The translations under genes were made by a program, and so were the position numbers. Below, piece by piece: positions 87 to 64,000 of a stretch of DNA of 64,000 nucleotides. The stretch is taken from positions 1,879 to 65,878 of the forward strand of contig CAJINV010000035.1 in assembly GCA_905178155.1 (NCBI GenBank). Direction: 5' to 3'. Source of the DNA: Amoebophrya sp. A120. Lineage: Eukaryota > Protista > Dinoflagellata. Numbering within the stretch: position 1 is the first letter of the stretch; the number at the start of each line of letters is the position of its first letter. The notes under the pieces were generated by a model. It searched no databases and was not told where the DNA came from. It saw only the letters and a program-made list of their open reading frames with translations.

Positions 87-3000
87 CTACCGCATAGCTG
101 CATCTGGCTCTTCGGGTTTCCCACAGAAAAGTACGCCGCTACCAGAAAAGGATCAAATTTATGTTGCCCAGTTACCAGCACTGCATCAACAAAAGTCTGC
201 AAAAATGCGGAGACCGCAAGAGACACACTGCTTTGTCGTGGAGAAAATATATCCAGCTTTTTGCTGCACTACGGCAGGCGAGGGGTTAGAGATGTAAGCG
301 AAAAAGTTTGTCATGTCGAACAGCCCAGGCGACGCTCCTTTTTTACTCAAGTGCCAATAGCCTGATCTTTTTTTCTGGCATGGGTGTGCCTTTTGTGTAA
401 GATATGCGGGAGCAAAAACTCCTGCTGCTGCGGTCCTGCTTGGGCGGGTGGAGCGGGAGGTGCAGCGGGGTCGCGAAACGGCAGTCTCTGTTGCTTATTC
501 AAATTCGTCCTCTTCATCTATGAGGGTGCGCAACTACTCCGCCTTCCAGCAATGACATAAACAGCAGCAAAAGCCTAAGCCCCACCAAGAACAGTACAGG
601 CTTTGCATGACCATGAGTCAAATCGACACAAGGCTTTTTTTGCTAGTGGGGATTCCAAAGTAGCACCTCCGATTTGGTACTGATTTTGCATGACAAATAA
701 GTTGGTGCAGGAGGGGCGGTTACGCACTCTCATATCATTGTGCCGGGGAAGTAAAAATTCTGGTTCTCTTCGTCCTGGTCAGTATGGATTGCAAATATGT
801 CTGGGGTTCTTCGAATAGTGAAAGACCTGCCAAGCTGATCTGCCATGCTCCTGATCTACTCTGGTATGCACATTGCTGTGTAAAAATAGCTGGAGACAGG
901 TGGTCCTTTGTCATGCAAAAACGTGCCAGCTTTTGGTGCATCTACGCACTGGACACTGCGTTACCGCTCCAACAGCTACATAAAAAATAACTCTGGACTC
1001 AGTGATATTAGTCATTCACACGAACTGCACTCGTTGCACGACTACTTTTCCCGAGGACTCCGACATGTTTGCACTAGGTAGTCGGACTCCTGCCACCACC
1101 CCTCGTACACCGATTCGGCATCATCGTCGACCGCGCCTCCCTCCTCCTCGGGCACTGCCACCGCGTCGACCGGTGCTGGGGCGCCTGCTATGGAGTTCTC
1201 ACACGTGTTGACAGTGTCAGCCGTGACATCACGACGAGCAATTTGTGCTGTGAGAATGGCAAAAGTGTCGAAAAAGTCTGCTCGTCTTGAGCCTACAAAT
1301 TCAAATTTGACCAACGGATAATTATACTTGTCTCCACGCCGGGACTGAGCAGCGCTGCGAGAATTTGAATTTGTCATGCGAATAAATAGCTTGATGGTCG
1401 TGTTGTTGAGTGATGGCAATTTTGCATCAGTGCAAATCATGTACCGCGTGAGAACTCCATAGCTGCGACATCGCTGTTCTCATGGACGCTATCTTCGCGC
1501 TCACCGTCTTCTTGCTCCACACCATCCTGTATGCATTGCAAATATGTCTGGGCGGTCGGGAAAGTTCGAACTTGTCGTGCCCAGTTTCTATTCCTGTGAA
1601 CAATCTGTATTGCATGACCAACATAATAAACTCGTAGCCTCCTGTTTTATCGTACGAAGCCGCACCTTCATCTGCGGACTGCGTATGACAAAGGCAAACC
1701 GTTCTGCAAGCTCGTCATGCTCGACTTCTGCATGCGGGAAGGGGTGCTGTTTATCATCCGCAATTCAGCATCACATCTTTCCCGACGCAGACATATTTGC
1801 AGTCCTTATCCTGTTCCGCGCTCTGCTCGAACTCCGACATTTCGTAGAAGTATGAAAGTGCGCAACCCCACCTCTTCCCCGGCATCTGTAATGCAAAATA
1901 CAAACCCCACATGTTGACAACTTTAAGCATTGTCTGCATGAGAAATTTTGGAACCTAACACAGTACTAGAATCCGTTTGCAGATTTGTCATGCGGAACAA
2001 GTCCCTTTTTCACTCTTATTGTGTGTGCTGCTGTTGATACATGCTACACAAATGAGAAGAAGGAAGAGTTGTGCACTCTCATACGAAGTTGTCGTTCATT
2101 ACGAGTGGACCGTCCTCCAAGACTTGCTCCGTCTCTTCGTGTATCAACTGCAACTATGCCTGGATCTGAAAGATATAGTGAACGTCTGTAATGCACATTT
2201 TTCATGACCGATTATAATGCCTGTGATGATATACAACCTAGCACCACAGATTTTCGTCTTATTTTGAGGGCTTCTCACCAAATGCCTATTCCGCATGAGA
2301 ACAAATGCCCATAACTCCTCGCAGCTAGTATAAGCGACTGGACTCCTGTTTTCTTGCTGCTCATGCAATACAGATTCTGTTTAGCATCCGAAACGCGCAT
2401 CACAAGTTGCAGGCGTCCAGACCTAGACAAAATTGCGACGCATATCCTCGTCGTCCTCGTCTTCCTCGTCCAACACGTTCCGTTTTTTCATGGCTATGGC
2501 TTGATCAATTGCTACAGTCTCAAGCGCTACAATCGCAATTTCGATTTTGTGTTGCGTGAGCAGAGCATGACCAACGTAGTACACAATCTTGGCCGTTAAC
2601 GTTATTTCACCGGGGATTATGAATTCACAGGGGGGCGGCAGCTAGGGAGCTTGTCATGCGCAAATCCTCCGTCGAAGCACGCTAGATGATTATGCACTTT
2701 CTGCATGTTATACAGATTTCTGCTTGCAGCTTTCCGCTTCTGTTGTAACGCTTGAGACTGCAGAGTACACCTGAGCAGGTCATATTCTTCTTCTTCTTTT
2801 TCTTCTTAGTCCTCGGCCAGCCCGCCCACACTTTCTGGTTGCGCTCGTGGAGCAGCTGCCCGTATTTCGCAGCCTGCTTTTTCTCCTCTGTTATCATGAG
2901 CAAAAGTCCCCCCTCCCCATAGTGAAGCAATCTGCTTCATCCCCTGAAGATAGAAACGCGGCTCTGATTTGATGTGGCCACCACTCGCGACGGTCTTGCA

Positions 3001-9287: not shown

Positions 9288-9308
9288 CGAAGACTTGCGA
9301 CGTTTTTG

Positions 9309-9600: not shown

Positions 9601-9876
9601 TTCTGTACCGGGGAGCATCGAGGCCCCTCCCCCTCTGGATCTGTGTTGCGTTTTCGGTGAAGAATGAGGAATGAATGTCGAGACTAGTAGAAGTCCATGC
9701 GTTTTGCACAAAAGCTTCTCGCCATATTTCTGTGGCTAAGAAAAGGAAATCATGGCGCGCTTGCGTCTGGAACTGAAAGAAAGAACCCACATGCATGCGA
9801 GATGAGTAGAAGTAACTCGGAAGGCCAAAACTCACAAAACCATCTTGAGTACCTGCACCATCGACCGTGGGGCTAC

Positions 9877-18608: not shown

Positions 18609-19814
18609 TACTGGCGCAGTTTGTAATGCTGGCGAAGAGGGCGCGACCACCCTCGCACGACCGTGCACCCTGGTCCTTTGCTACTCGGGGCGGAGTATTC
18701 TAGCTACTTCGGGGCTTGTATTGCCAGCTGCGCGCGTCACCCGCTGAAGAGGCCTTCTTCTGGAAGGTCAACAAATGCGCCACTAACTAGAGAAGTAGTC
18801 CCATCGAAATGCGCAATCTGTCATGCTGACACGTAGCAAAAGGAAAGACGGCGGTGGCGTGTTTGTGCAAAAACAAAGCGAGCCCATTCGGATTCCTTGT
18901 GTCACACGCACTGCGCATTACAAACTGACTCCGACGCAGGCAGCTTGCAAGAACGAGTCCGCCTGGACTAGTTCTCTCATACGGAAATCGCATTACAAAC
19001 AGCAACCTACTGGCGCAGTTTGTAATGCTGGCGAGGATGGCTAGGGCACGACCACCCTCGCACGACCGCGCACCCTGGTCCTTTGCTACTCGGGGCGGAG
19101 TATTCTAGCTACGTCGGGGCTTGAATTGCCAGCTGCGCGCGTCACCCCCTGAAGAAGCCTCCTTCTGGAAGGTCAACAAATGCGCCAGCAACTAGAGAAG
19201 TAGTCCCATCGAAATGCGCAATCTGTCATGCTGACACGTAGCAAAAGGAAAGAAGGCGGTGGCCTGTTTGTGCAAAAACAAAGCGAGCCCATTCGGATTC
19301 CTTCTGTCACACGCACTTCGCATTACAAACTGACTCCGACGCAGGCAGCTTGCAAGAACGAGTCCGCCTGGACTCGTTCTCTCATACGGAATCCGCATTA
19401 CAAACAGCAACCTGCTGGCGCAGTTTGTAATGCTGGCGAAGATGGCGCGACCACCCTCGCACGACCGCGCACCCTGGTCCTTTGCTCCTCGTCGCGGAAT
19501 ATTCAGCTACTTCGGGGCTTGTATGCCCAGCTTCGCGCGTCACCCGCTGAAGAGGCCCCCTTCTGGAAGGTCAACAAATGCGCCAGCAACTAGAGAAGTA
19601 GTCCCATCGAAATGCGCAACCTGTCATGCTGACACGTAGCAAAAGGAAAGAAGGCGGTGGCCTCGCTTGTGCAAAAACAAAGCGAGCCCATTCGCATTCC
19701 TTCTGTCATACGCACTGCCAATTACAAACTGACTCTTACGTCGTAGGCAGCTTGCAAGAACGAGGCCGCCTGGATTCGTTCTCTCATACGGAATCCGCAT
19801 TACAAACAGCGACC
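18609..19814. repeat. Tandem repeat, 3 copies of a ~400-bp unit
   Basis: Units start at 18609, 19008 and 19413 (t(a/g)ctggcgcagtttgtaatgctggcg); units are highly similar by eye and give near-identical short ORFs in the track. Confidence 0.95.
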
Positions 19815-20357
19815 TAATGGGCAATTTGGAACTTCACACTTTGACTCGTTTGTCGACTACCTAATAAATTAGATCGATGTCGACGAACGGCAACGGCTGA
19901 CTTCATGATATCGTCGCGCATTTTTTACTGCGATTTCATCATCTACTCCTCCAGATGTTGCGTTGAAAATCTCGAGATCTTCAAGTCGACTGGAAACAAT
20001 AAACAAAGTGATGCTTCTAGTACGAGGAGTAGGTCTAAAGCTAAACAGAGCTTGCGGTACAGATTCCAGAGCTGCGCAGAGAGGCGTTAAAGTCTTGTTT
20101 GCCACAAGCCTGTTGTTAAAGAAGAAAGTCATTTTCAATCGGGAAATGTCCGCCTTTGATGCGGTGTTTTACTTTTGGTTATTATTCTCTCTGAATAGTC
20201 ATGTAGGCACTTATCGCCAGGAAAAAAAGAAGGATCAAACTCACTCTGCTCACAGGAACACAAACAGCCGCACAATTCGTTTCTGTTGAAGTCACTTGTT
20301 TGACCTTCGACTTCAATGTGACGAGCATAAACAGATTTTTATTTGATTATTTGCTCC

Positions 20358-23300
20358 TCACTCGACCAACTTCAACGACCACAGTGCTTTATTTTTGAAC
20401 TCGCCAGTACAATTCGATGCAGGAGACGTCGTCGCACCTCCCCCACCAACGACCTCAATCAACGAGTTTTTCGTCGGTTTTGCGACTAATCTCACTTGCT
20501 CGCCGATACTCAGTTTGGACAAAATTTCGCTTGTCGTTTCCAAACTCTCCACCGTCCCCGCTTTCGTGTGGCGGAGTTGGGGGAGGAAAAACTCCACTTT
20601 GCTCGTGGTGGTGGTCGGAACAGCAGGCGCCATAGTTTCGTCGACTTCAGACTCTGGACAAGAACCTTCGGCGAGTCGTGTTGAGATAGTCGTGGTGGAA
20701 CGACCTTGTCGGTCATCCCCGTCTTGAGACGAGCAGCTGCCACTGTCTTCAGTTCCATTACCATTTCCCAGCACCGCCGGATTGTTCATTGACGCCATGG
20801 CGGCTGGTGCGCCACCCATTTTTTGCCCGCCATCAGCTGTCGAAACTGACGGAACAGGCGTTGTAGGGGCAGTGCTACTACCAGAGCAGATCGCGGCGGG
20901 TGTAGAAGTCGTGGTAAGATCAGGACTCGCATACCTCGTCGACGCATGTATTTTCCACACCACTCCGACAAGCTCCACTCCTCTCTCGGGCAACGGTTGC
21001 CTTCGCAAGAATTCCGCGAAATACCACAATCGGCAGTCCGCCGCGGCGTCGTCCTGCCGGCGGCTGTAGTCGGTGCATCGGGCGGTGATCTGCTGCAGGT
21101 CCGACCACTCAGATTCGGAGATCGCTGGAGGTCGCGTCGACCTATTTTGTGCTGCGTTCACTTCTGTATCCTCCGCAGCTGCAGGTCGTGCGACTGCTTT
21201 CTCATACTCGTACTCATTTCCCACTGCTCTCGCCAGCATCCTATGTACGATGATATCTGCGTAGCGGCGGATTGGGGAGGTGAAATGTAAATACCCCTCA
21301 AGGTTCAGGCCCCAGTGGAAAGTAGTAGCAGTGGAAGACGTAGATGATGACGAACAAGACGCAGTGCTTGTGTTTTTGTCAGCCTGATGGTCTACAACTT
21401 CCGCTACGTGCTGATCCTGATCAGCATTCTGTATCGTGGTTTCCTCGTCGCCATCCACCATCTTATACTCCGCTTTTTCCAGTGCCTGCAACGCACTAAA
21501 AGTCACACTCTCGGCGAGGCTTGTGGGTAGGTGGGTTTGGGCAAATTGAAGAATTTCTTCCACCGTGGGCTGAGGATTGTTTGTGTCGGTGGCGTTTTGA
21601 CAACCATCATAGTTGGACCCACTGGTACTGTATGAAATGCAAAAGAATCGTAGTACTAGTATATATCGCATGACAAATTTCCCCAGCATGAGAAATAAAG
21701 TTTGTAGTGCGGATTTAACTTGAGAAAGAAATTTGTATTGCATGACTGCGATTACTACGAGTACGATACTTTTGCACGGAATATGCTACCACCTGTGTTC
21801 CCCCCGTCGATCGAAACGCCAGTGAGAAAATGCTGGATTTTCTGCTTCATCGTCATGGTTTCGGCCGTGCATTGAGGTGCATTTTTAGTACCCGCTTCTG
21901 ATGCAGCTTCCTCTCTGGTGCTGGTAGTGTTGGTTTCCGCAGCGCTTCTGCTGGCAACATGTCTACCATCTTTCCCCTTCGCTACCAAGTCGTGCAAAAA
22001 CAGCAACAGCTGCTTCCGAATCTGGTTACTGGTGTCCGGATGGATCCGCTGCATGGTTTTGTGCTGATAAGCTTGCAGCAATTTCTTCGCGACAACATGA
22101 TTCGCCAGCACCATCAGCTCCTCGATAATTCGGTGCGAGTCGAAGTAGAAGGGTCGTTTGTCATGCTGGTTTTCCACTGAATGCGCTGTCTTACCAGTAC
22201 TGTCCTTCGTGCCGTTACTCACAAATTCAAACCTCGTTGGCCAGCCCGTCTCCTGGTCAAATTCCATGACAACCTCGTCACTGGCGTTGCCAAAATTCAG
22301 GGTCAATCCGCCGGACTGCAATCTCTGCTCCCGACGTGATTTCGTCACGATTGCCAGGTGCTGCAGGATCTCCTTCGGAGTGGTTGGGAGGAGGCGCTTT
22401 TTGAAGGTAGATGTTGCGCTGGTTGTAGTGTTGCGCTTGTCCTTGTTCGCTGCGGTTTTCGCATGACAAATTTCTTCTGGCTCAGCTGTAGTGGCAGCAG
22501 CAATCTCCTTCTCCTTCACCAGCATGACAGATTCCCTCGGCACTGGAAAAACGCCGTCGTGCGAGTCGTTGAGCAAACACTCGTTGACACTGTCGTAGTC
22601 CATCCGGGCTGCCGGGCGGATCAGTGTGCGGTGGAACTTTGTCATGCTGGGAACGGTATTGCCGCTGGGTTTGTCATGCGTTGCTCCATCATGTTCATGG
22701 TCGTAAGCTCCTTCTTCTTGTTCTCCAATGATCTTCCCGGTCTCCGGATCCAGGGAGACGAAAACCGAAAAGCAGTTCTTCTCCCTAGGAACAGCAGGAT
22801 CGACAACGTCGCTGGTCGTGCGATTTCTCCCACTAGGCTCCACATCCGTCGCATCCAATGAGCAGCACCGCTCCGAAAGAGCTCGCGGCAGCATCGGGTA
22901 AACCCAATTTGGAAGATAAACCGTGGTCGTTCGGCTTTTCGCGACCTCGTCACACAGTGACCCGGGCCGGACGTAGTGCGCGACATCCGCAATGTGGATG
23001 CCAACTTGGAGGATTTTCTTCTTGATGCTTTCTGTAGAAGTAGTGGTTGGCGCAGCGCTTTTTATTGCCGATGAACTATCCGCCGTGCAGCTTCGTTCTC
23101 TAGCAGGGCCACTGCTACTCGAAGGAAATGCTGATGTCCCTTTTGTCGCCCGGATCCCCTCCCGCTTGTACACCTTCTCCCACCACTCCGCCTGGTCGTC
23201 CAGTGAATCGAAAATCTGCACGGAGATTGCGTCATCCAAATCTTTCGCGGTCGTTGGATCGATGGAGAAAACGTACAAATCGTTTGTCAAATCCACTCTG

Positions 23301-26298
23301 GGGATCACATCCGTCAACGGCTTATGATTTTTCGTATCATCCGTCAATTCCAAAGCCTCCTCCTCGCACTCCCTGCTGTGCGGCAACGGATCCATTTTGT
23401 ACCAAGCGAGAATCGCGTCCTGTTCCGCTTTGGGCGTGTTGGAGCGGCCTAAATCGTAGAGAAACTGCCCTCGGGGGAGAAATTCATCGTGCTTCCAGTT
23501 TTCGTATGAACTGCAAAAATATCGCGGTCGTATTGAAATGCATTACAAATTTTCTATGCATGAGAAGTAACATTTGTAATGCGGATTGACCTTAAGAAAA
23601 GGATTTGTAATGCATGATTGCAATACGAGTATCAGATACTACTTTTGCACAGGATACCTCGAAGCCGGCGACAACGACGTGACCGACCAGCGTCGACTCG
23701 ATGTCTGCGTCCTCGTAGCGATTTTTACTGGTCGTGTGGTTCTGTGCCCTTGCAGTCTTGGACGAGTTCTTGCCCGGGACGGCGGTCTTTTTGGTGCTGC
23801 TAGTACCTGTGGTTTTGCAAAACGGCACCACGTTCTTTGGGAGCGATAGTACACGAGAACTCGTAGCGTCGTGGGCATTTCGGGAGCCGGGGTCTTCCGG
23901 ATCTGTCTTCATCAGTTTCTCAAAGGATTCTGGCAGTCTTCTCGGGAGCGTCCACGCGGGGAGCCGCTGGTCCCGGGGCTGGAACTTCATCGTTTTGTCC
24001 GTTTCCGCGACGATTGTCCCGACTACTTTGCTATGCTGAGGAAAAATGGCCTTCGAGAGGACCTCAGTTTGTCATGCGCGACAGGCAGAAATACGTGTCT
24101 TGTGGTCGAAGTCGTAGCGCTTGCTACAGAAGAGAACCGTGCTGGTTGTAATTACACTAGATGAGGAACAGCCCTACGCATGGCTTGCCACTAGTGCCGG
24201 CAACCGCAGGGACCAGTTTAGCAAGAAGCCGCCTTTGCGACAGGTTGCGAACGCGACTGCGAGTCACGTATTCTTCTGGCATAATATGCATTACAAACTG
24301 TGTCCGAGAGGAGATTTTTCGCCAAGATATTTGTGCTTCTCGAATCGTTCCCTGATCGCGACGATGCGGGCAAATTTCGTTGTCGATGTACTTGCTTTTA
24401 TTCCGGGTTGTGAAGCTGCGCCATCGTCTGGCACAGTTGCGTTGGCGGACCCAGCTGCAAGATCATTCGCGGCTGAATCTTTTTCCGTCACTTCCGCCAC
24501 ACCATCCGTTGCGTCATCTCCTTTCATCGTCGCTTCTGCGGGGCCTTGCATCGGAGCCGGAGGGGTCGTCGATGATACAGTTCCTGGAGGTGTCGGTGGA
24601 AGCGCTGGTGGATCGGGGACGACAGATGCCTGCTTGCTTGGTGCTACCTGAAGACCTGCCGGATCGCAACTCGACGCAGTTTGTTCCACACGCACTGTCG
24701 AGCAGGTCGCTCCCTCGTCTTTCGACGATGTTGGAGCTGCTGTGGCACCCTGTGCAGGTCCTCGCCGCGTCGCAGGAGGCGACGCAGATGAAATAGGCGG
24801 GAGGGATGGATGCGAAGGTTTCGCTGGCTGCTCTACTGGATTTGCGTGTGCAGGAGCTGTTCCCTCCCCACCACTCCATTTCGGCACGCCGGGAAAAAGC
24901 AGTGTTGGATCCTCTTGCAAACCCGCAAGAACATTTTTCAGCTTCTTCCGGATCTCTAGCTCGACGTTGTTCCAGTCGAACTTACCAGAATACGGTAAAA
25001 TCAGCACTTTGTCGCTGCTATGCACGGCAAAAGCATAAGGATAAGCATCGCATCTTCCCACAAGTCGCAATCTTGCATGACAGATCCGCTTCTCCTTCTT
25101 CGTCATCGTCTCGCTTCTCTCCAATTCGCATGACAAATTCTATTTTCTTTGCTGAAACAACTTGTCATGCTGCAACGTATGCTGGTATCTATGATGCTTT
25201 TATGCACTTGTTTTGCAGAGCATAACTGCTCATCGCCCGGTTCCGGGCCATAAAGCCGGGGATGAGAAATCTCCCGTGCTGCTCCGTTTCCACATAGCAG
25301 GATTCGGTATGAAACGCAGGGATTTTCATGGTGCCGGACAGCAGTATTTCGTGCTTCTCGAGTAGAGCGAGGAGTTCGGGTGGTAAAGCGTTGTCGACCA
25401 AGGTCGTTCTTGTATGATCTGTGCCCGAGGTACTAGTGGTGACATTCTCGCAGCTTTTTGGTATGGCCATCGCTCCGTCGCCGGCCTTAGAGTTGGAAAC
25501 CGAACCTGTCGTGTCGGCAACTTCCGCGGTTTCCTTGCTGCATGCAGGGACTAAATTCCAGTGTGGATCAAAACAGGGACGAGCTGCTGATGCCGCACTT
25601 GCACTGGAGCTATCATCGCGAATCTTCCACTGTGAATTCGTTCCAGAGACCAGGCGCTTGTCTGAGGTATAACGTGGTGATGTTAAAGATGTAGATGAGG
25701 CGGAGCTGGTAGAGGTTTTCATCTTGACGTCATTGGTACCTCTGCCGAGTGGTGAACAACCGCCAGCGCTGTCTACTGCCGCAGTATCCTGCGGCGGTGC
25801 AGGAACTACGCTGTTTGTCGGCGGAGGCGGTGGTACGAACTTACACTTTCTCTTCGCAGCAGCTGGAGTAGCAGCAGCAGCGGCCGCTGTCGATTGCAAA
25901 AATCGAACGTCCATTGCTGTGGCAGCAGAGGCTGCAGTTGAGCCGCTCTTTTTCGTGGTGTTATCCGAAGGTGGTCGCGCCGCCCCCACACGAGGACCAG
26001 CACTGGGATGTTGAACATAATTCCGAGGGCGATTCAGAATCGCTGCGGTCTTCTGCGTCGGGTTCATCTGGGGAGTAGTAGTTGTTTTCCGCGTGACTGC
26101 CTTCGACTTCGGCATCGAAGGCGCAGAAGTTGTTCTTACCGGTGGAGCAGCTGCGCCAGCCGCTGTCTTGCTGGATGGCAGAGTTGTACATGTGGAAGTG
26201 ATCGTCGAGAATGAGCATGAGAACTTTGCCGGTGAACAAAGTGCCGGGCCAGGCCCACCCACAAGCGCGGTCTTTATCCGCTGCAGAAGGAGCCTCAT
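20358..26298 (-). CDS. DIS3L2: RNase II/RNB family 3'-5' exoribonuclease, DIS3L2-like (~1703 aa)
   Basis: Motifs NRAMSSDKV (CSD1), FQPRDQRLP, SIDPTTAKDLDDAIS (catalytic Asp), GIHIADVAHYV, SHRIIEELMVLAN and YLHFTSPIRRYADIIVHRML. No PIN domain seen. Four introners (21631-21783, 23505-23656, 24032-24329, 25019-25224), all in frame with element+5. Subfamily assignment is inference. Confidence 0.88.
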
Positions 26299-26980
26299 TC
26301 TGGTGAAGCAGGAGAGAATTGCGGGTGGTATAATCTACAGATGTCATCCACACATCCACACAACTTTCACTTTCTTCAGTGTTATACCCATTGAGGAGAG
26401 GGTGCAGGGCAAGATAAAATTGTTTTGTCGGCCCAGATTTATTCACGCAACCACGCTTAAAGCTATTTTGGATCTTGTATCAAATCGGATCGTCTCGTCA
26501 AGCGAAAAAACGCAAACGTTCAGATCGACTCTAAGATCGTTCTTCCGCCGGTCTCGTCGCATCTACTTCACAGGTTTCAAGAAACTCAAAAGTTTTATTG
26601 GATCATTGCATCTGGTTTTTTTCACTTCAAAAAAACATTGATCTTCACCGCTCAGCGTTGGGACAGAAAGGGAACCACACAGGAGGAGTTTGGGACAACA
26701 TCTCTAGGGTTACGTCTCCTCCTCACTGCTTCGGAAGTTGATACGACTGTGCTCTAGTACTCGTAGATGTAGAGTTTTCATTTGTCAAAAGGAAGAGCTA
26801 ATCATCTCGATCTACGTCCAGCAGAACCAATCTACAAAAAAGAGAAAGAAACCAAAATTTTGTGGGTACAACTCCTATATTCTCGTGTGAAATGAACGTG
26901 ATAAGTAGTGCAGATGAACAAGCTTTGATGGCACAGGCACTTGATCCTCGTGTACGGAAAACGAGCAAAGAGCCATACTT

Positions 26981-29900
26981 TCAGCAATCCACTAAGCGCA
27001 CATGCGGCCCTGGTTGCGTATCCATATTATCAAAGTGAAAAAAGCCCCCACCCCATATCGGAAACGGGAGACGCGCGAATTTGTGATGCTGTATTTGAGT
27101 ACACAAATCGACTTGTATTGCTAGGAGGCCAAGAGACGGAGCTGCGGCCTAAATTGCAGGTAATCTGTCATGCTGTTTCCCCCTTCCAGTTGCCTCTTGT
27201 CATCCTGGAGTTGCAAGGCTTTCCCACGCTAGACAGCACTACAGTCCGCATCTTTTGCCTTCTAGCATCACAAAGCTGATTTGTGACCCCAAATCTGCAT
27301 CACAGATTTCCGTTTTGATATGGGGAGGGGGCATTTTTCATTGTAATACATATCCTCTGGCATTTCAAACGGCGTTTCCAGCCCCAAGTATCCTGTGCAA
27401 AAGTATCGTGCTCGTATAAATGCATTACAAACTTCCTCAGCATGAGAAACAAAATTTGTATATGCAGATTTGCCTTGGAAACAAGATTTGTAATGCTAAA
27501 CTTGCATTGGTACGAGTGCGATACTTTTCCACAGCCTACCAATTGATACGCCCGGATCTCGCCGCTCGCAACACTAGTACTCAGCGCAAAAATGTCTGGG
27601 TCTGGAAAAATCGGAATCTGTAATGCGCGTTTTCCACTCCTGTAAAATCTGTATTGCGTGACCGACAAAAGCGCGAATTCTTTGTCATGCAAAAACGCAG
27701 TTTCTTATGCGGATTACACATGAGAAGGCGTCCGCAAAATTTGTCATGCTTGGCTGCACTCAGGAGTGTGCTCAGTCATCGCTACTGGGCATCATAGGTT
27801 TCCAGACCCAGACATATTTGCAATGCATAACTAGTCGCCGCCTGCAAAAACGCCTGCACGAAACAGTGCCACGCGAGTAGGTGGTACGAAGTTGCGAGGG
27901 TTGCCTGGGCTAAGTGGCTCGCGATGCAGGACTGCGAAGTTGTTGTCGCTGCTGCTCCTGCTGCTGCGTGGTGAGCAGCTGCTTGTCCGGCTGCGGACGC
28001 AGTCGACGCCGCGGAAGTACCACTATGCAGGACACCACCACCAGCACCAGAGCTGCAGTCAAGCCCGTGCGGAACGATGCTGCTGAGGAATCCGGCGATC
28101 CTTTGTCTTGCATGGTCGCCGCAGCAGGATGCACCGAACAGCCTGTCGCCGACGTGGAACGGTTCTAGCGTGGCGCCGGGATGTGCCCTCGTCGAGGCCA
28201 GAGGCGACTGGCCAAGAGTGAGTTTCCCGAGCGCGCCGCAAAAAAGTTCGGCTCCGATGTGAGCACAGAGCATCGCGAGATTCTCGATACCGCAGGTGCA
28301 CCAAAAACTTGTTTTCGCGGTCTCGTCCATCATCGCGTCTTGATTCTCCCGCGGTACGAGCTCGCAGGGACTGTCTTCCCCGTTGCAGCAGGTCGACGGA
28401 TCATCGGAACACCCCTATGGCGTTCTCAACTGTTACATTCTCAACTGTAATACATATATTTGTGATGCAAGACTGGCGAAAGTGAAAAGAGGAAGATTGC
28501 GCCTGTTGCATTACAAGGTTGGCGGAGATTGAGATGCTGTCTAGCCCTTCCGAAATTTGTCATGCGAAGCAGCTCGATCATCTGCCGGCTTAAGATGCTT
28601 TTGCATGACAAATACATGTAACAGATGTAACAGTTGAGAATGTAACGTTGGAGAACGCCATAACCCCTTCCGCACGTTCTTGCACGGACAGCAGAAAATT
28701 CGCAGGAACAGGCAGCCAATTGTTATCAAAAGTAAAAATGTCTGAGTCTGGAAACTTGTGATGCTGGGTGGCGTCTCATGATGAGGCTACAAATGCTGGC
28801 TCAGCATGACAAGTTTCTGAGCTCCTAGGTGTTGCCTATTCTGCATGACAAACTGCGCTTCTGCATCACAGAAAAACGGAGCTCTTGGGTAACGTGCATG
28901 ACAGATTTAAGAGTCATGCCAGACAAGCATGACAAACATGAATTCTTCCAGAGCCAGACATTTTTACAGTTGATAATTGTATCCTGACTGCAAACGCCCC
29001 CGCCACCGCATAGTCAATCTTGACTGGGATGAATTCTGCAACACAAATCCAGAAGTTTGTTTTAGATGCCACGAATGACAAGTTCGTCGCTGTAGTGTAG
29101 TAGAGCATAGCCATGTAGTTAGCAAGTGCAGCCGCATCTCAAAGCCATCAGCTTATCCTCTTTACAGGATCACAAATGCTGAAACACGACTATAGAATAT
29201 ATGCCCCTCATGAGATTGAGAATGCGCATTTTTACAAATCTTCCACCTGTAAGTTAGGTGCAAATACTTTCGAGTGGGAACATTTATATTGTTGAGGATA
29301 AATTGCTTTCACCGACACATTCCCCTTCACCGCCGCCGCCGGCACCGCCAGACACCGCAGGCACTGCGCGCTCTGTTTTGCGCAGCAATCCGACACTTTG
29401 CAGCAACAGCAGCAGCAGCAACAGAGGTTCGCAACCGTCAAGCCAACACTGGTGGTCGCCGGGTCCTTGCAACAGAACTCAGGCCAGGAACTGCCGCTGG
29501 CCCGGTCGCAGCAGGGGAATCGTTGGAGGTCCCTTTCTGTTAACGTGCCCAGCCGCTGGACGTAGCTCCGACAGGGGCGCTTCCTGTGGGTGACTTGAGC
29601 TGCTTCTCCCGCTGTGCAGCTGCAGCAGCTGTTCGTGCTGGTTGGGGACGACGGAATTCCATCAGCGGCGAGTGAAGTAGATCCTTCTGTACTACGGAGT
29701 GTCCGCATGTCGTAGCTGTCCTGCTGTTCTTGTGCCTCCACATCGCGGCCTTCCTGGTCTTCTCCGGGAAGCTGTGTTGCCAAATACATCTGCGACAGGA
29801 CGTCGCTGAGCGGGCTCCGCTGATTCGGCACGTCGAAGACGAGTACATACGCTATTTCGAGCAGCGTCGTGTCGTGCACGACAAATTCCGTGTGCAATTG

Positions 29901-32900: not shown

Positions 32901-33413
32901 TGTTGGTGGGGTGCAAGGACAGTCGGGGTTGGCGTCGGGTAGAAGGGGAGATACGCAGGGGGGTGCAAATTTGCACCGCTACCTGGCCCACCACCGGGAG
33001 GGTATGGAGTTCTCAAACGATACATTCTCAACTGTTAGATGAATTTGTCATGCAGAACTACCATCATCATTCACAAGATCAAGCTGCTGCGCATGACAAA
33101 TTTGCGAAGGGCTAAACAGCGCCTAAATCTGCGCGGGATTTGTAATGCATTTTTTGCAGTCTTCCCCCTTTTGCTTTTGCGATTCTTGCATTACAGATTC
33201 ATGTAACAGTTGAGAATGTAACTTTTGAGAACGCCATAGAGGGGGCAAAGTGCTTACATCATCCTCCTGCTGCGGTCCCAGAAAAAAACTCATCTTCGTT
33301 CCTGCCACGAGAAAATTTTCGGCTGGTGCGATTAGTTGTGCAAAAATAAGCACAACTGTTGCAGCAACAAGGAGACCATGAGCACGTGGCGGCGGTAGAA
33401 ACATCATTTTCAT
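26981..33413 (-). CDS. PARP/ADP-ribosyltransferase catalytic domain protein (~1140 aa) with signal-peptide-like N-terminus and Cys-rich C-terminus
   Basis: Spliced model gives EAYFFHGT (His 31847-31849), NILKNGL...YGDGIYLANQLHKAAQYS (~31165-31220) and LHTEFVVHDTTLLEIAYVLVF (Glu 29886-29888). Twelve elements: 33003-33238, 31908-32169, 31511-31774, 30570-30837, 30164-30372, 29989-~30147 (boundary uncertain), 28980-29300, 28724-28975, 28416-28662, 27578-27829, 27389-27538, 27028-27348. Confidence 0.8.
28723..29300. mobile_element. Compound introner: element 28724-28975 inserted one base inside the end of element 28980-29300
   Basis: Inner flanks attgt/attgt, outer flanks aattg/aattg; joint removal of 583 nt restores VKAI-GCLFLR. 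Confidence 0.8.
31511..31774. mobile_element. Introner element, family A
   Basis: About 33-nt TIR tatcaaatgtaaaaatgtctgggtctggaagaat; perfect flanks gtatg/gtatg; close copy at 48803-49079. Confidence 0.92.
31908..32169. mobile_element. Introner element, family A
   Basis: TIR and perfect flanks tccga/tccga; close copy at 52952-53216 (cagcc/cagcc). Confidence 0.9.
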
Positions 33414-34068
33414 TCTTTCAGCAGATTTTCAGTTGTAATACTAGAAACAAAGAGGTAAATAAAAAGGTAGTATTCCACGCCCCACTTCCGCTATGTCGTG
33501 TCCTGTGCGGCGGCGGAAGGAGTGGAGATGCAAAAAGTCAAAAGAATAAAGTTGCAATCGTGATCATGAATCATCGCTCTCTCGTGAAACACAAAGAAAT
33601 GACAAAGCACTCGTTGCTAGAGTTTTGCTGGGTGCAGCCGGAAGTGGTCAAAATAATGGGTCTGCAAGCAGTACTAGTTCTCGCAAGTCCAAGTCAATTC
33701 ATCTGTACGACTTCTTGATCTGGTACTCTTTCAACAAGAGAGAAGAGTGCTGGAGTGTGTCGTCAATGGCAAAAAACCGCCCTCGCAAAAATCACGACGA
33801 AAAAATGGATCGAAAAAGGTCGTCTCTTGCCAGTCGCATTGTACAGGGATGCTCCTCGGAAAAAGGTGGCCAGCACGGAGGTGGCGGTGTACGAGCAACC
33901 CAACGCAAGAGAAAAAGATAGATTTGATGAACTGAGAAAAAAAAATAATTGGATCATCCACAGGCCGGTCGTGTTGAAAAATAAACAGTGATCCGCAAAG
34001 CACGACGGGCGCGTTGGTACAACGAAAGATTTCATTTTCGCAAGCCACTCTGGGATAACTTGCAGATT

Positions 34069-35931
34069 TCAATTTTCCTGTAGGGATAGCCTGATCATAT
34101 GATCCACAATGTCGCCTAGACTGCAGTACTCATCAGTCGCCGGCGGGGGATCATTTGTCATGCTATTTTTATTTTCCCTGAGATCTACTGCCCTGTCGCA
34201 GTCCCGTATTCGCAGGGGTATTGTAATCCTCTCCCCGCCGCGGACTTCCCCCTCTGAAGCGGACGGGCGAGTTGATGGCGACAGTGAGGTCGGGCTGATT
34301 CCACCTTCCGTTTTGTAGTTCCGCGAATGTCCCACCACTCCTCGTGAAGAGACACGCTCACTTTCTGGTGAATCAGCCCTCGCCTCAGTGCTAGTACTTC
34401 TTCGTCCCCAATGTGCTGCAAAAGTCGTCGGCACGAAAGACCAAAGAAACGCGGACGTGGAGGTCGGCACACTGGCTTGCACCTCTTGATATGGTATGGA
34501 AAATCAGAATCGCTGTCAATTTGTCATGCTATACAGAACTCGTAGCTTAAAGCGATTTTGCACACTATGCATGACAAACTGACACCAAAAATCTTGATTT
34601 CATCCACCATACCCGATCGGTGTCGGCGAAAATGAGTTGGTCATTCATCCGATGGTCCCCGCCGAGAACTTCCAGGAAGCGAAACTGTAATGCGGAGTGA
34701 ATATTGGTATCGGCGTTTGTCATGCTGGACTTCGAAGCACCAGTACTAGTTGCTGTGCACAATAGATTCGCGAACAGCTGCCGACTTCCCTCAATGTCGA
34801 TCACCGTGTCTTTATCCATTGCAAATCTGTCTGGGTCTGGAAACTTGTGCTGCTGGGTGGCGTATTATGAGGAGGCCAAAAGTGCTGGCTCAGCATGACA
34901 AGTTACTGAGCTTTTAGGTGCTGCATATTCTACATGGCAGACGGCGTTTCTGCATGACAGAAAAGTGGGGCTCTTCGGTAACATGCATGACAGATTTCAG
35001 AGTCATGCCAGACGAGCATGACAAGCATGAACTCTTCCAGACCCAGACATTCTTGCAGTTGATAGTCTTGATCCCCGTGCAACAACCAGATCCGAGTTTG
35101 TGATGCGGAAAGGCGATGACAAATGTTTTCTGCCGAAATGTTCATAGAGAGGTATCGTTTTTCCACCGTATCCGCGAAGTAATTTTCGAAGTCACCAGGC
35201 AGGAAGGTGTGTAGTAGGCTCGTCATCACCGGGTACGCGTGCTGTAGAGGCTTTAACGCCGGAGCGATTAGGAGAAGCGACTCTGGGGTCGCTTTCGCTA
35301 ATGCGTCGATCTGGTACGGAGAGAATAACTCCGTCCACTGGCGCAGCAGCTCCAACGCAATCAAACCGCCCCAGGAAGAGCCGATGAGGAGGATTTTCAA
35401 GGGTTTTGTGGTAGAAGATGTCCTCCGTGAGGTGGAGATTGTTGCGTTGTTTGCTGTTTCCGGAACGTCATAGCTACTTTCTGCTCTATCCACATAGTAT
35501 CCCACTCTCCCGCCAAGCACTCTGGACCGGGTTTGGTACTCTTTCAGAATCTCCTGCTTCGCCGTTTCCACGCATTTTTCCACCGAAGTTTCGAAGGAAA
35601 AGGAGTTCTGGGACAGCGAGTTGCGCTTCTGGAAAATACCCATCTGCATGTTGATTGGAGTCACGAGGACTTCGGGTGAGGGACGACGTGTTGAGGAGGA
35701 GCTCGTCCTGTGCGACGTCGTTCCACCTCCAGGGCGGGTGTCCTCAGCAGCATCATGCTCGTCTCGAGCTGGATTGGAATCGTTGTTCCATGATGTCGAC
35801 GACGTTTTGTTGTACCTTGCCTGCAGGTACTTGCTCTTGCGCCCGTTGACGCCACCCTCGAGTCCGGGAAGGAAGATGATCCAGGTAAGGGTGGAGCAAG
35901 GTAGTGCGGACGGTGAAGTAGTGGTGGCCAT
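34069..35931 (-). CDS. Alpha/beta-fold hydrolase (esterase/lipase-like)
   Basis: IFLPGL oxyanion region, IGSSWGG nucleophile elbow, LLHGDQD|TVIDIEGSRQL formed across introner 34813-35064 (gtctt/gtctt), GGDHRM His. Second introner at 34490-34611. 3' end uncertain. Confidence 0.82.
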
Positions 35932-36164
35932 GTATACTTCGTGTGTAATTATTTTTTGGCGCTTATAATTGTTATTCTCGTGCGTGTTTTGGAATCCAAC
36001 AGAAACCTAGGTAAAAGGTACTGGAGCAGTCTTCGTCCTGCACATGGATGCGCCCTAGAATGCAGAGGCGAGTAGAGCGCACTACCTCCGTGCCTGGGGT
36101 TTATCTTTTGTGCGGAAACAAAACCGAGAGTCGCGAGCTCGGCAGCAGTACCATGAAAACGATA

Positions 36165-54064: not shown

Positions 54065-54190
54065 TATGCATTGCAAAAGTTAAAGTATCGCACTCGTATA
54101 AAAAATGCATTACAAATTTTGTCAGGATGAGAAATAAAATTTGTGATGCGGATTTGCCTTAACAAAAAGATTTGTAATGCATGATTGCAA
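54065..54190. mobile_element. Left part of a family B introner, interrupted at 54191
   Basis: Matches family B (cf. 16229-16380) up to gcatgattgcaa, then the expected tacgag...gatacttttgcacaggata right end is missing. Confidence 0.8.
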
Positions 54191-57605: not shown

Positions 57606-59219
57606 GTGCTGCTGGTGCAGGCCGAATCAACATCGTCAAAACTGCGGCGTTGCAGTTTTTCACAGTTCTATTTCGTCGCGGGCCGACAAGAGCAAACCGA
57701 TTTTTCGTAGAAATAAAAGCTCATCGGAGGTGCCTACATCCTCCCATCAGCAACTACACTCGAAACCGGTGCCGATATCCGGACCAGTGCAGCGGGACAC
57801 TGATATCAAAACCTGTCTTCATACGTCACGCGGTCCTGCATGACAAACTTCAAACAACAAATGATAGAAAGGAATAAAAACAACGTCCGATTTAGCAGCA
57901 CCATCACCAGCAATAATTTCGAATATCCGGCTAAAACAACTTCGGCTGCGGCAGTAGTAGTTCCCGCATATTCATCAACTGATATCTTCACCTCCACCGC
58001 GTTCGGTCTCGGCGACACTGATCTCCCAGTCCTTATGGATTTGAAAAATTCTACCCCACTTTAGTGAAAGGCTAAAGCGCAAGATCGGAATCTGTCACGC
58101 GTGACAAGATGATATCTCGTTACGATTTCACAGCGACAGGAATTCGTCATGCATTTTGTAAAGTGTCACGCGTGTGAGGATGAGGCATCTTGCAATTGTG
58201 CCTTTCGCTAAGGTGGGGGCATCGTTTTCATTTCCATCTGCGGCCCACGGTGTCGAATCAAACGTACTTTCAGGGAAAGAACTACATTTATTTGAGTCGA
58301 TGTCATCGACGATTTCTACTCCTCGACTGAGGAGAAAGTGAACACTTTCACCGCGTATGGAGCTTGCTCCTTTTGAATACATTGCTGAGATAAAATGCGA
58401 AGCTTTTCGAGCTTCACAAAAAACTTTATTTTTTAACTGTTAAACGGACGGATGGAACCCAATAAAGCTGTGCCCTTCTCATGTTTGCCGACAGGCTACG
58501 TGCCCGCTACCGCTTCTTCTTCTTTCGTGTTCCTCAACCTCCTCCTTCCGAAATGAAAAGCTCCTTCCACCGAAGCTCTATGGTTCCGCGAAATCAAAGT
58601 AACGCGATCACCGCCCGGATCACCAATGGCTTTGCCGTCGATCAACGTTCTCGTCGCCTACAGCCACGACCGCAGCAGATCCCAAATTTCTGCTCATCGC
58701 TCGGCCCTGCGGTGCCTCGTTCTTCCACCAATGCGCTCCATCCAACAACAATTCTTTTTTCAATTTTCTCCCCGGTTCTGCTGCTTCTCAGCGAGTTCGG
58801 ACGACAAGGCTCCACGGAAATTAAAACGCAGGTCTTTCGTTCTCCACCCGATCTTGATTGCGACTGCGAAAAGTTCTTTCCGATGCATGCACTTTGAGCC
58901 ATCTTCTAACAGGGCCTTCGTTTTTGCACTTCGTGTGAAAACAGGATTGGAATTCCACTTGATTGCAAACTAGAACTTCTAGGTTTTGTAGCTTCTAAAT
59001 CTACGTAGCGACTCAGATTCAAATATAGTTTTTGTGCGGGTTTGCGCTCCGCGCTTTCTCGATAGCGACATAATTTGAAGATGGTGCAGGTGTATCCGAT
59101 GTCAAACGCCCCTCGAAAGTTGTTTGCTGTGCCATGCACAGCCTTCATTTGTCATGCACGGAGTGCATGACTGCATATCAAACGACTCTCGTGGGGCCAG
59201 TTTGCCATAGGATATACAG

Positions 59220-62200
59220 AGCAAGAAACTGTACGAGAGCGGCACGCTGATGCTGTGCCGCATGCTCAGCGACACGTGCGTTGGCAACTGGAAGCGCCAG
59301 CGTGGAGCCTTGGCTCCGAAGTGGTCCCAGTGGCGCCTGGAGCTCGAGCAGTCCGAGATGTACGGCACGGCGGAGGACCTGGACATGGAGAACGGCACCT
59401 GCAAGACCAATATGGGACTGGAGATGGTGCTTGTTTTTCTTTTCAACCTTTTCCTCTACTTTTTCGTGGGGCAAGCTGCAAGAGCTGCATCTTCAACATG
59501 GCGAAGTGCTTTCGAGGCATTTGCCCGAGGGCATTTTCGCATGACAAATTTAGAGCACGCTGCAAGACGGCGCCCCTACATGCATGACAAATTGGGTAGT
59601 TGCGGTCGAACATCATTTGCGCATCACAAACTCGAAACTGATGAGAAGAAAAACGTATTTTCGCAATACAAATTTAAATTCTTTCAGGCCTTGTTCCTGT
59701 TGTGGATGAAGGGGCGCGGGTACAGCGACCAGGTGAAGGCGTGGCTGGCCACTGTCCGCTATAAGCCGCAGGACCTCAACGACTCCGACAGGCTGCAGCT
59801 GATCGCCACAGCTTTGGAGAAGGCGCACTGCGAGTCCGAGGTGTCCGCACGCCTGCAGCTGGTAAATCGTATCCACCTTCTTTTGTCGCATTAGGTCGCG
59901 CTACTTCCGCTTTTCCAAAATAGATATGATAGCCACGCCTCGAGCTGCATGATTTCCACTTCTTTCCCGCAATACAGATTCTCCTCAAGACCCAAAAAAA
60001 TCAACACAGACCAATCTGCTGCGGGGGACGCTCGACTTGATCATCTTCATGTACAACCTGCTTGGCGTTGTCCACTTCGAGTACCCCGGCGAGTCCACCC
60101 AACTGAGTGACCAAGTGTGGCAGAAAACGATCAACATTCAGACCGATGAGAGTACAAAAGGGCAGGAGAAAAAAGCCTCCTTTGCGGTATAGAGTTTAGA
60201 TTTCTTTTGGTTGATTCTCGCATGACAAATTGCATCAGTCGTTGTTTCCTTGGATCTGTGCATTACAGAGCTTCGCCTTGTACGATTTACGCATTACAAA
60301 CTCAGGCTTACTTGAGCTTCATGATCAACCCCGTCCGGAAGTTTGTCACCTACTTCTTCCCGCTGATCTTGCAGCGCCCGAGCCAACGGCTTCCGGGAGG
60401 GAAAAACCCCGTGCACTCCGCCGCGCAGGGCAAGGCCGTCGACTTGTTCCGGCTTGTCCACTGGCTCGGGGGGCCGGCCTTGGTGCGAAAACTGGTCGGA
60501 CCGTTTTACAGTGGCTGGCGCCACTGTTTGATCATAGATAGCGATCAAGAAGAATCACAAGTACGCTCTGGACAAGGACTCGGCTACGTGATCAACTGTG
60601 TCACGCGCCTCGGCATCCATCATCGACTTTCAAATATATGCAACCGCGTGTGCCTTGCCATCGCGCGGGTCCGATTCTGTTTACGAGATTTCCTCCGCGG
60701 CCAATACGCACGCAACAGCCTCCGCGGCGCCTACGAGGCTGCGAGGCAGCGCCTGCTGCAGAAGTGCGACGAGGAGAACTTGTGCATCGTGAAGGTCGAG
60801 CGGCAGACCGGGAAGACGACGAAAAAGGCGCTACAAGAAAGTACTTCGATTTTGTTTCTCTTAACGTTCGGTAGTGCATGCAAGTGGTTTATGTTGATTT
60901 CAGGTTTTGGGCTCAATACAAGTCGGCTTTTTATTTTGAAATGGCCATCACAGCGCCCTGAAACAAGATGGCGGAAGCTCGTGGCCAGCGGCCCGGTAGC
61001 CAAACTTGCCCCAAGTCGAAAGCCGGAACCTTCGGCTTTCGATTTTTTCAAAAGTGAGCGCTTTGATTCTTGGTCGCACAGATCACAAAGAGAAAAAGTG
61101 CTCAAAAAGTGAGTTCGAAAAGGGACAAAAAGTGCAAAAAAAGCCATGGCTTTTTTTCATTTTTTTGTGGAAAATCAAATGTGATGGCGTTTTTTATCCC
61201 CACCTGTATACAAAAAAGCGAGTTGTGATGGTGTTTTTTATCCCCAGCTAAAATGGCACTTTTTGCGCTTTTTGTAAACGTGATATTTTTTGAATCCCCA
61301 CCTAAGTGCAAACGAAAGAAGCAAAAACAAAAACACCATCACAACCGGAAAAGTTCAGTTTTAGGCGCGGCCTCCGAAGTCGCTTTTTTTTCAAGTTTTT
61401 CAAAAGTGGTTACTTTGTGAAATGTGATGCTCGCCTATAGGTGGGGACTCACTCTTTTTTTGGTGCAACATCACACCAAAAATGAAAACGTTTTTTGTTT
61501 TCGGGGGGGGTCCAAAAAATATTAGAGTTAGCGAAAAAAAATGTCTATTGTGATTGACAAAACAAATAATGAAAAGACTGTTTTTCAAAATCGAAAGCTC
61601 TTGATCGTCGTCTTCAAATCCGCCCAAATCTCGCAATACAGATGCGTCGCTGACCAGTATGGTGGAAACCCGCTGGCTTGCGGAATGGGCGGTGGCACAG
61701 TGGCTGCTCAGAAACAGCGAAGTGGTGATTGCGATCTTGCGCGAGATGTTGGACTTCGAGAACGGGTTTCGGGCCAGAGTCGACGGCTCGGAGCGTGGCC
61801 AGCCCTCGGCTTTTGAGGATGGCACCGCGCTGGATTATCTCGACCTGTTTCCTGCGCCACTGGTTTTGACCGAGGAGGGCAGTGTCATGGGCCTCAGCAG
61901 TGATGTGTTCGGTGGAAGATATGCATGGCAAACAGCTAGCAATCTGACCACGTGGAAATGTGAAGAATAAAGATGTCATGCGGAAATGAACTCACAGCTG
62001 CGTTTCCTATATGCGCAGGCTGCAGCTGTTTGTCCCTTGCATAAGAATGGAGAGGATCTCGTGGCGGCTGAAGTCGATCGCAGTGACACGCTGCTGGACT
62101 ACGAAGGTAATCTTGTTGATAATCCGGATGGAGTGCAGCAGCAGCCGGTCGGCAACTTGTTGGCCCCCATGGACGTCGAGATGGAGGACGTGCAGGATGA

Positions 62201-64000
62201 TCCAGATGTTGCTCCGATTGTTCCTCCGGCCGCCAATCCGCCCGCGCAGCAGCAAAACGCTCCCGCTGGGAATTTAGGTGATCCGGATGACGACGCAGAT
62301 GATGAAGTACGAAAGTGAAAAACTCTTTGTAGAACGGGTTTGGTAGTTTGAAGCTTCTAGCTGTAGAATTTCGAACTTGTCATGCAAAATTTCCAAATTT
62401 CGTATCTACAAAGAGGCTTTCACTTTCATACACTGCTCCCGAAGGAGCTGCCGGTCGCGGAAACAACAATCGTCGCACGGACAAGCAGCGGACGCTGGAC
62501 CTTTTGAACTCCATCGAGAATTGCGACGAAGACCGAACCCGGCACTACGTCGACTCCATCAAAGTGCGCCACTCGTTTCACTCCATGCACCTTTCCGTCA
62601 CCGCCGGTGCTTTGTCGACAGATCGGGGACGAGCGGAAATCAAGGCGAAGTACACGCCGCTGTTTCCCTGGGCCAACTTCGACGGTCAATACCACGACTT
62701 TCTGATCAGCGTGGAGGAGAACATGCCGGGGTTCTTGCTTGCTGCCATGCGGCAGGCTTGCAAGAACATCCACAACCTGCAGGAAATGCACTCCGCCATG
62801 TGCATCATGATCTTCACCATGCGATTTTACTTGTGCACGTGCTTCGACCCCAATTTCGGGCTGTGGTTTTCGGTTGTGTTCCGTCCCCGCATCTCTGACG
62901 CCCACATCATGGCCAACGATATTAAGCACGACGTCCTGGACACGACGGCCGGAAATGGCGTGTTTTGCCGGAAGCTGAATGTCTTCGCCACCTACATTCA
63001 GAACCTCCTGAACACCGATGCGGAGCTTGGGGAGGAGGTTTTGAAATTGATTGTGATCAGCGGTGCAGCGGGGGACTTTGAAGGCGAGCGGCACTGGCGT
63101 TATGCCAGTGTCGCACAGAAGATTTTCCGCGCCCTCCAAGGCCGGTTCAAGTTGTCTTTCGGCCGCTTGCGCTGGGCCGAAAAGTGCACGCAACTGTACC
63201 GGAAGACTCCGTCCCTGTGGGGCTCGAGTTCCCGCCACGCCCCTGCCCCGGTTTCCCAGATCCGCCCGATTTTGGCAAACGCCGCTGATCCGCCGACCGC
63301 TGCGTCTTTCCGTGAAGAAGTTTTGCAGGAGTCTAAGGACGCTCCGACCCTGCAGCAGCAGTTCAAAGTCCTGGAGGACCTGCGGATGTCCCATCCGCTT
63401 CCGGAGCCGATGGCGGAGATCGCGAATCGAATCAAGCTGGAGACTATCCTCTGAAAAAAACTAAAATGAATGCTGCTCTCATGCATGACAAACACATAAT
63501 GTGGCACTGGAAAAGAACTCGCATCATGGAAAGCATTCACTTTAGACATTTCTCTTTGGGATAAATTCTCTGAGTGACGACATCGCCGCCAGCGCCATCA
63601 ACTACGTGAAGCCGGGTTTGGAGACCGCGGTGCGCCTCCAGGCCAGTCGCGTCGAACAGACGGCCGACATCCCGATCTTGGAAGAGGTGGGCAAGCGTTT
63701 ATCCAGATGAGCCTCCTGCTCGCCATCACAGATTTTGTAATGCGCGAGGAGCAGACGCGGCATCTTGCATCACATTTTGCGCATGACAGATGGTAGTGAT
63801 TTCAGGGAGCAGGAGGCTCATCTGCATAATCTGTTGACAATGCTCTGCGCTTGCGGCACCGCGCTGCCGACCACCGCCCGGTCTGTGCTATCGACGAGGA
63901 GGGCGGGACTTTGGGAATGATCATGTGGTTGGTCTTGCAGATTATCGACGGGAAGTGGTTCGGAGTGTCGATGACCAGAGTTCCGGGAGACGTGCTGATG
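59220..64000 (+). CDS. hAT-like DDE transposase (5' start unresolved, 3' end beyond window)
   Basis: Exons joined by GT-AG introns 59427-59687, 59862-60009, 60187-60305 and probably 60841-61641. Motifs TINIQTDEST (60136-60156), LIIDSD (~60528-60545), GIHHRLSNIC (~60612-60641) and SMVETRWLAEWAVAQWLL (61656-61709) occur in hAT order. Three introners (62308-62430, 63445-63563, 63700-63828), in frame with element+5. Confidence 0.65.
63700..63828. mobile_element. Introner element inside the transposase gene
   Basis: TIR tatccagatgagcctcctgctc / gagcaggaggctcatctgcata; element+5 removal keeps the frame open to the window end. Confidence 0.8.

Follow-up and report, generated by a model that had tools for sequence, protein, structure and literature searches.

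We analysed a stretch of 64,000 nucleotides of Amoebophrya sp. A120 (contig CAJINV010000035.1, positions 1,879 to 65,878 of the forward strand; called the window below) and followed a short motif, GCATBACAR (B is G, C or T; R is A or G), that recurs inside its introner elements. The motif bears on how the tens of thousands of non-canonical introns of Amoebophrya move and are spliced. The window is eukaryotic, gene-dense and full of elements of 118-330 nt, whose ends carry TAT (sometimes TAC or TAA) and then an A-tract; its features are collected in Table 1. The introners of A120 reported by Farhat et al. 2021 (PMC7789003) have inverted repeats starting with TAT, an A-tract, short direct repeats (3-5 nt), non-canonical splice sites and many families, and the window elements are alike in all of these: terminal inverted repeats (TIRs) that start with TAT and an A-tract, a short direct repeat at the boundaries, non-canonical removal from transcripts and many families, which insert in both orientations. 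Their family lengths also resemble those of the "TIR DNA, Unknown" families in the PMC12130899 supplement, of which 22 of 58 A120 rows were compared.

Table 1 Features of the window, with positions counted from its first letter
Feature	Positions	Strand	Remarks
TIR introner elements, hand-curated (84)	519..63828	both	TAY..RTA ends, 5-bp target duplication, mostly 118-330 nt; 175 motif copies
Non-canonical introns joined across in probable RNA contigs (15)	21626..35064	-	46 motif copies
RNA-joined introns, first set	21626-21783, 23501-23657, 24027-24329, 27023-27348, 27384-27538
RNA-joined introns, second set	27573-27829, 28411-28662, 28718-29300, 29985-30401, 30565-30837
RNA-joined introns, third set	31506-31774, 31903-32169, 32998-33238, 34485-34611, 34808-35064
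Predicted GT-AG introns (7)	55366-55510, 55657-55740, 56098-56228, 59427-59687, 59862-60009, 60187-60305, 60841-61641	+	frame restoration and homology only
Exonic motif copies (5), including same-strand 32-bp pair 22639/22671	22158..22679	.	in DIS3L2-like RNB gene loops that fall outside the regions aligned to solved structures
Exonic same-strand 32-bp motif pair 34685/34717	34685..34725	-	between two RNA-joined introns
405-bp tandem repeat, three units	18609..19828	.	11 motif copies; TIR not recognised
TAT-type end with CCATCACAA	54191..54240	+	interrupts a ~150-nt family introner, 54065-54190
Lysine-rich gene, ~650 aa	55125..57605	+	upstream of the transposase-like gene; without Pfam match
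Multi-intron gene, candidate hAT-like transposase	59081..64000	+	D..D..GxHH..TRW..E pattern, homologous to an Amoebophrya A25 protein; runs off the window; model provisional beyond the intron at 63444

For comparison, the window was combined with 209 kb of JACKZZ01 contigs that have the same element families and share them with the window at about 65-80% identity in the longest matches. These contigs were chosen by a 31/32-bp motif-pair pattern, so that one spacing class is inflated in them. Automatic calling gave 254 elements in this combined set and 1 false element on the shuffled window. The 5-bp duplication was exact in 161 of the 254, by a detection that rewarded 5-bp matches, and none of them had an exact duplication of 4, 6 or 7 bp.

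Fifteen of the window's non-canonical introns are joined across in contigs of four probable RNA runs, which come from one sample; the joints lie at 20-36 kb, and one further joint was reported without detail. No run is recorded as RNA, and their RNA nature is presumed, but two of the four leave most of the unique DNA at 54.9-64 kb uncovered, which makes a genomic origin unlikely. At every joint the element is excised plus 5 nt, which equals the length of the target duplication. Two joints force the register of splicing, in which the cuts lie 1 nt ahead of the first TAT and 4 nt past the last ATA, and this 1+4 register is compatible with 14 of the 15 joints, the exception being a composite of two elements. 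Sites at which the register can be seen are 23501-23657 and 29985-30401, and also 21626-21783 and 34485-34611. The register suggests that the cut sites are placed by distance from the terminal repeats and not by dinucleotides, and it starts an intron with N-T; the many gt and at donor dinucleotides in the A120 family list of the PMC12130899 supplement fit such a start. Adjacent or nested introners were in two cases excised as one intron (28718-29300 and 29985-30401), and neighbouring members of one family in inverted orientation, or introners next to or inside each other, were also seen at 8508-8669 with 8964-9119, 28724-29300, 29989-30400 and 50244-50803.

The enrichment of GCATBACAR in introner elements is real. 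The window holds 210 copies (120 on the plus strand and 90 on the minus strand, spanning 688..63789), and 100 dinucleotide shuffles of it gave 4.34 on average and never more than 9. With Markov models of order 1-4, simulated sequences had 5-21 copies; an order-5 model gave 104, but it was trained on the window itself and is circular. The wider consensus of the motif is H-GCA(T>A)(G>C>T)A(C>G)A-R-R-T (H is A, C or T). When the window was divided into hand-curated classes, the 84 TIR elements held 175 copies (8.5 per kb), the seven predicted GT-AG introns at 55.4-61.6 kb held 9 (5.3 per kb), the 405-bp tandem repeat held 11, and the other 40,557 bp held 15 (0.37 per kb). This is an enrichment of about 23-fold over exon and intergenic DNA, the comparison on which a preliminary description of the window had staked the motif. 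The automatic calls agreed, with 9.8 copies per kb in the elements and 0.43 per kb in unique DNA, and with a copy in 224 of the 254 elements. The long open reading frames (ORFs) of the related contigs contained 6 copies in 58,647 bp, which is near chance.

Other parts of the preliminary description had to be narrowed. The motif is indeed common to families with unrelated TIRs, since it was found in all 8 large families, whose TIRs differ. Several copies in almost every element had been described; a strict copy is present at least once in 75 of the 84 curated elements, but at least twice only in 52, and 9 have none. The copies reported in GT-AG introns of the large element near 55475, 55685, 59540 and 60220 were found, but a strict copy occurs only in 4 of the 7 predicted introns there, while a relaxed pattern occurs in 7 of 7. 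These seven introns had no RNA cover; the reads first compared left the unique DNA at 54.9-64 kb uncovered, and the raw-read runs X9 and X10 gave only partial repeat matches, which is silent on expression. That the motif marks introns of every kind does not hold, because besides the 9 copy-free elements two canonical introns of the related contigs, anchored by continuity of Pfam domains (UBA1-like, L023:4350-4502; FtsH-like, L027:509-697), contain no copy.

The copies follow a spacing rule that is new and common to unrelated TIR families: the preferred distance is 31-33 bp for same-strand pairs and 46-49 bp for divergent ones, and same-strand distances of 21-30 bp are avoided. In the window there were 23 same-strand pairs at 31-33 bp, against 0 in 100 shuffles, and 18 divergent pairs at 46-49 bp. 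One copy was also drawn per family in 1000 draws over 59 units; same-strand pairs at 31-33 bp, the commonest pair class, then occurred in 7.8 units (1.1 under random placement), divergent pairs at 46-49 bp in 5.9 units (0.46), and same-strand pairs at 21-30 bp in 0.02 units (3.6 under the null). Slots in the family consensus sequences are often 15-18, 31-34 or 45-50 bp apart, and a strict 16-bp lattice fits them with R of about 0.62. In singletons and unique DNA together the fit of the lattice is weak (R 0.25, p 0.075), and we therefore restrict the claim to the classes of 31-33 and 46-49 bp. The sequence between the copies had no similarity across families that qualified, though the spacing is kept. 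Since three turns of B-DNA measure 31.5 bp, we infer a protein that reads double-stranded DNA.

The motif is also under constraint. Its columns are more conserved than the other internal columns in 8 of 8 families (0.80-0.96 against 0.66-0.81). On family trees, where columns were taken as independent and parsimony saturates, the relative change rate of motif columns was 0-0.49 on internal and 0.36-0.78 on terminal branches; the constraint was stronger on internal branches in 8 of 8 families, and the terminal repeats behaved alike (Fisher p = 2e-6). This loosening of motif constraint on terminal branches, in parallel with the terminal repeats, is new, and it is what a cis-element needed for transposition predicts. 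Motif density also falls as the target duplication decays, being 10.8 per kb in elements with a perfect one, about 8 per kb in those with a mismatched one and 5.3 per kb in singletons.

With moderate confidence, and by analogy with known transposons, we read the motif as an array of putative transposase-binding sites in introner DNA; among the functions offered in the preliminary description, binding by a protein at the DNA level fits best, and a branch-like signal and a pairing element were both weakened. The protein that reads the motif on double-stranded DNA would be the mobilising transposase. A transposase that moves these miniature elements would bind GCATBACAR, and the spacing of about 32 and 48 bp would let a multimeric enzyme engage several copies together. 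Many TIR families with one site would then be using the same or related transposases, and the copies in canonical introns and exon loops would for the most part have been left behind by old elements. The symmetric ends would account for splicing in either orientation, with the cuts 1 nt and 4 nt outside these ends. That the motif makes elements spliceable either way, as had been suggested, found no support, and the symmetric TAT..ATA ends are the simpler explanation.

The arrangement works like the subterminal repeats of hAT transposons, although membership in hAT is not established. According to the cited papers, hAT transposases bind short subterminal repeats in both orientations, such as AAG(T/C) in Hermes (PMC10368747) and CG/AATTCAT in Herves (PMC3143072). 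Like these, the window motif is short, asymmetrically arranged and repeated both ways inside the TIRs, and in hAT such repeats are read by a multimeric transposase through its BED domain. It differs in being 9-11 bp long, in being common to families with differing TIRs, in its 32/48-bp spacing and in its presence in exons and canonical introns, and no BED domain was seen. The target duplication is 5 bp and not the 8 bp of the hAT superfamily, but hAT families with 5-bp duplications exist (hAT5, in the available text of PMC12730594). IS3EU/GingerRoot elements were also considered; as described in PMC10045372 and PMC12730594, they have TAYGG..CCRTA termini and duplications of usually 6 bp. The window elements share TA..TA termini with them, and some families begin with TATGG, but the duplication is 5 bp and not 6 bp, membership fails on that length, and no IS3EU-like transposase was present in the scanned ORFs.

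Several observations weigh against transposase binding. Non-element DNA of the window contains the motif about 8-fold above chance (16 copies against 1.7-1.9, counted with an earlier mask), 9 of 11 exonic copies have optimal flanks (p = 0.004), and of 26 adjacent pairs in unique DNA 8 are 31-33 bp apart, two of them (22639/22671 and 34685/34717) in exon sequence covered by RNA; copies of this kind should not be kept by mobility alone. In 7 of 8 families the motif retains more constraint than the terminal repeats on terminal branches, and its divergence is not raised in the 18 elements whose duplications have decayed (0.108 against 0.128). Furthermore, in 11 of the 15 RNA-joined introns a sense copy lies 40-62 nt from the 3' splice site; the variable base of the motif falls at the n of the branch consensus yUnAy. 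The last two points concern the large element described below: homologs of its candidate gene occur in AT5, and the repeat at its possible left end is CCATCACAA and not GCAT.

The copies outside elements would be accounted for if a host DNA-binding protein, possibly a domesticated transposase, read the motif, so that elements spread by carrying arrays of its sites while the host retains certain sites, in canonical introns and exon loops, to organise chromatin or to mark introns co-transcriptionally. We regard this as possible but clearly less probable than binding by the mobilising transposase. Besides the excess and the flanks just given, which were also optimal in 5 of 5 other non-element copies under the earlier mask, it is favoured by pairs at 31-33 bp in unique DNA and in predicted canonical introns without TIRs, by the residual constraint on terminal branches and by the richness of the 405-bp tandem repeat in the motif. 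Against a host protein stand the near-chance count in the long ORFs of related contigs (6 in 58.6 kb), copy-free gaps of 2-4 kb in the window (for example 35106-38930), the absence of the motif from the two Pfam-anchored introns and the relaxation of constraint after insertion. The five copies in the RNB gene lie in unaligned loops and could be exonised relics; exonic copies in general may either derive from exonised elements or be retained as sites of a host protein. The 405-bp repeat itself has a motif density like that of introners and is without a match in the related contigs.

The placement of sense copies would instead be expected of an RNA-level splicing signal, a branch point or enhancer near both ends that offers one sense copy near the 3' splice site in either orientation, and this we consider unlikely. 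The U2 branch point has a UNAC core. The motif resembles it in this core and in the sense copy that many elements have 40-60 nt from the 3' end (at 40-49 nt from the 3' splice site in 59 of 186 oriented elements), and every one of the 15 RNA-joined introns has at least one copy on some strand. However, the motif is not strand-biased: the 186 oriented elements have 211 sense and 225 antisense copies, and the curated window elements have 71 sense and 104 antisense copies, with antisense in excess (strand calls based on ORFs and the block strand coincided for 31 of 36 window elements). A strict sense copy is lacking in 59 of the 186 oriented elements and in 2 of the 15 RNA-joined introns, and in the ~150-nt family sense copies are absent from the 60 nt next to the 3' splice site in all 20 members, though three members are joined in RNA. 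The orientation of copies relative to the ends varies by family, being divergent, convergent or all on one strand. Because sense bias is absent and sense copies are missing near the 3' end of a family that is spliced, a branch-point role is unlikely, and the branch-like or intron-definition signal of the preliminary description is weakened. Exonic sense copies are retained in the RNA contigs, and strong canonical introns are without the motif: among 13 hand-picked GT-AG candidates 2 were chosen for having it and the other 11 lack it, and heuristic GT-AG candidates, which are noisy and give a rough guide, had it in only 12 of 124. A splicing signal would also leave the spacing rule unexplained. 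No small nuclear RNA was found within the window.

A combined scheme, in which a host-encoded, possibly domesticated transposase sits on phased GCATBACAR arrays and marks the DNA for removal by a U1-lacking spliceosome, so that intron identity would be a spacing code in DNA with cuts 1 and 4 nt outside the TIRs, seems to us rather doubtful. It is more improbable again that the motif is a neutral relic, in which all families go back to a single ancestral element that had internal repeats, the motif being functionless now. TAT ends and an A-tract are common to all families and make common ancestry plausible, but the motif columns are islands of conservation that are constrained on internal branches, and the spacing is kept where the sequence between copies has no qualifying similarity across families. 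That inverted copies pair in RNA or single-stranded DNA and join the ends, the pairing element of the preliminary description, is very improbable and largely refuted, because although minimum-energy folds pair 154 of the 452 copies with another one and several families have symmetric outermost copies, no class of pairs shows covariation at the variable base (equal in 15 of 45 symmetric inverted pairs against 20.4 expected under within-family shuffling, in 27 of 55 divergent pairs against 29.4, and in 14 of 28 convergent pairs against 14.3), one family has all five motif slots on a single strand, and same-strand pairs at 31-33 bp are the commonest. Unlike the variable base of the motif, TIR positions 4-9 covary between left and right in families 2 and 5 (104 against 80.6 and 64 against 60.1), which hints at end pairing or end templating.

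The gene at 59081 is a candidate hAT-like transposase by its sequence. It is open for 886 residues once seven predicted introns are removed, three of which are short TIR introns, and its product matches an A25 protein (E 6e-95) with 31% identity over 888 columns. Its residues D, D, GxHH (where hAT has C/DxxH), TRW and a late E follow one another in the order of hAT-type transposases, whose signature includes RW and the late E, and these are kept in homologs. In the Atlas the nearest named clusters are hAT-derived (scores 0.82-0.84), which serves as a lead. The protein had no Pfam match and no sequence match in PDB, and a fold search with its low-confidence structure models (predicted local distance difference test, pLDDT, 41 and 52) was empty and uninformative. 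No transposase match to Pfam was found among 87 ORFs of the related contigs and 22 window ORFs. Homologs of the gene occur in Amoebophrya A25 and AT5.2 and in ENA and Logan records, and searches by length class and in viral contigs gave no further ones. Strain AT5 is reported (PMC12005148) to have canonical introns, so the gene is a candidate and not a proven mobiliser. For A120 itself PMC7789003 reports that a transposase was not found and judges general mobilisation by transposase to be ruled out; the window supplies a candidate protein that Pfam misses. The TAT-type end at 54191 is possibly the left end of an element of more than 9.8 kb, and a 17-nt inverted copy of it lies at 61223-61239, but neither a matching right end nor the other half of the interrupted introner was found inside the window. 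The 801-nt GT-AG intron 60841-61641 contains A/T-tract repeats and copies of CCATCACA that match the end at 54191-54216, and it is possibly a nested non-autonomous element.

Neither the motif nor its spacing was found described in the Amoebophrya intron literature, taken mainly from openly accessible papers. The available text of PMC7789003 mentions no internal shared motif, spacing rule or fixed splice register, and "GCATG" has 0 occurrences in the portion of its supplement text at hand. "GCATGACA" has 0 occurrences in the available PMC12130899 supplement files other than 13-14, and among the matches listed for "GCATGACA" with "intron" none was on this organism by title. Resemblances of the motif to paired-domain, SKN-1, Oct-Sox, RBFOX and N6-methyladenine (6mA) VATB motifs were considered and dropped; for the paired domain a literature search was empty, and the enriched GCAA variants lack the CATB core. 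One shared, spaced site across unrelated TIR families gives a concrete DNA probe for the mobiliser or the host factor.

Some minor features were also seen. Singleton TIR introns of near-equal length (118-129 nt) with decayed duplications lie at 54966-55088, 59093-59214, 61920-62043, 62308-62430, 63445-63562, 63700-63828 and 34490-34611, and two of them retain a divergent motif pair 46-48 bp apart. The low-complexity region at 36104-37315, a 36-nt repeat with two open frames on the minus strand, is free of the motif. Contig L057 (1-2362) comes from another source and holds a 15-16 nt minisatellite with TGTCATG, and it was probably caught only via the search pattern. At L077:505-1608 and L045:2131-2940 there are longer forms of short families, with GC-rich, motif-free internal insertions, and these are possible intermediates between autonomous and miniature elements.

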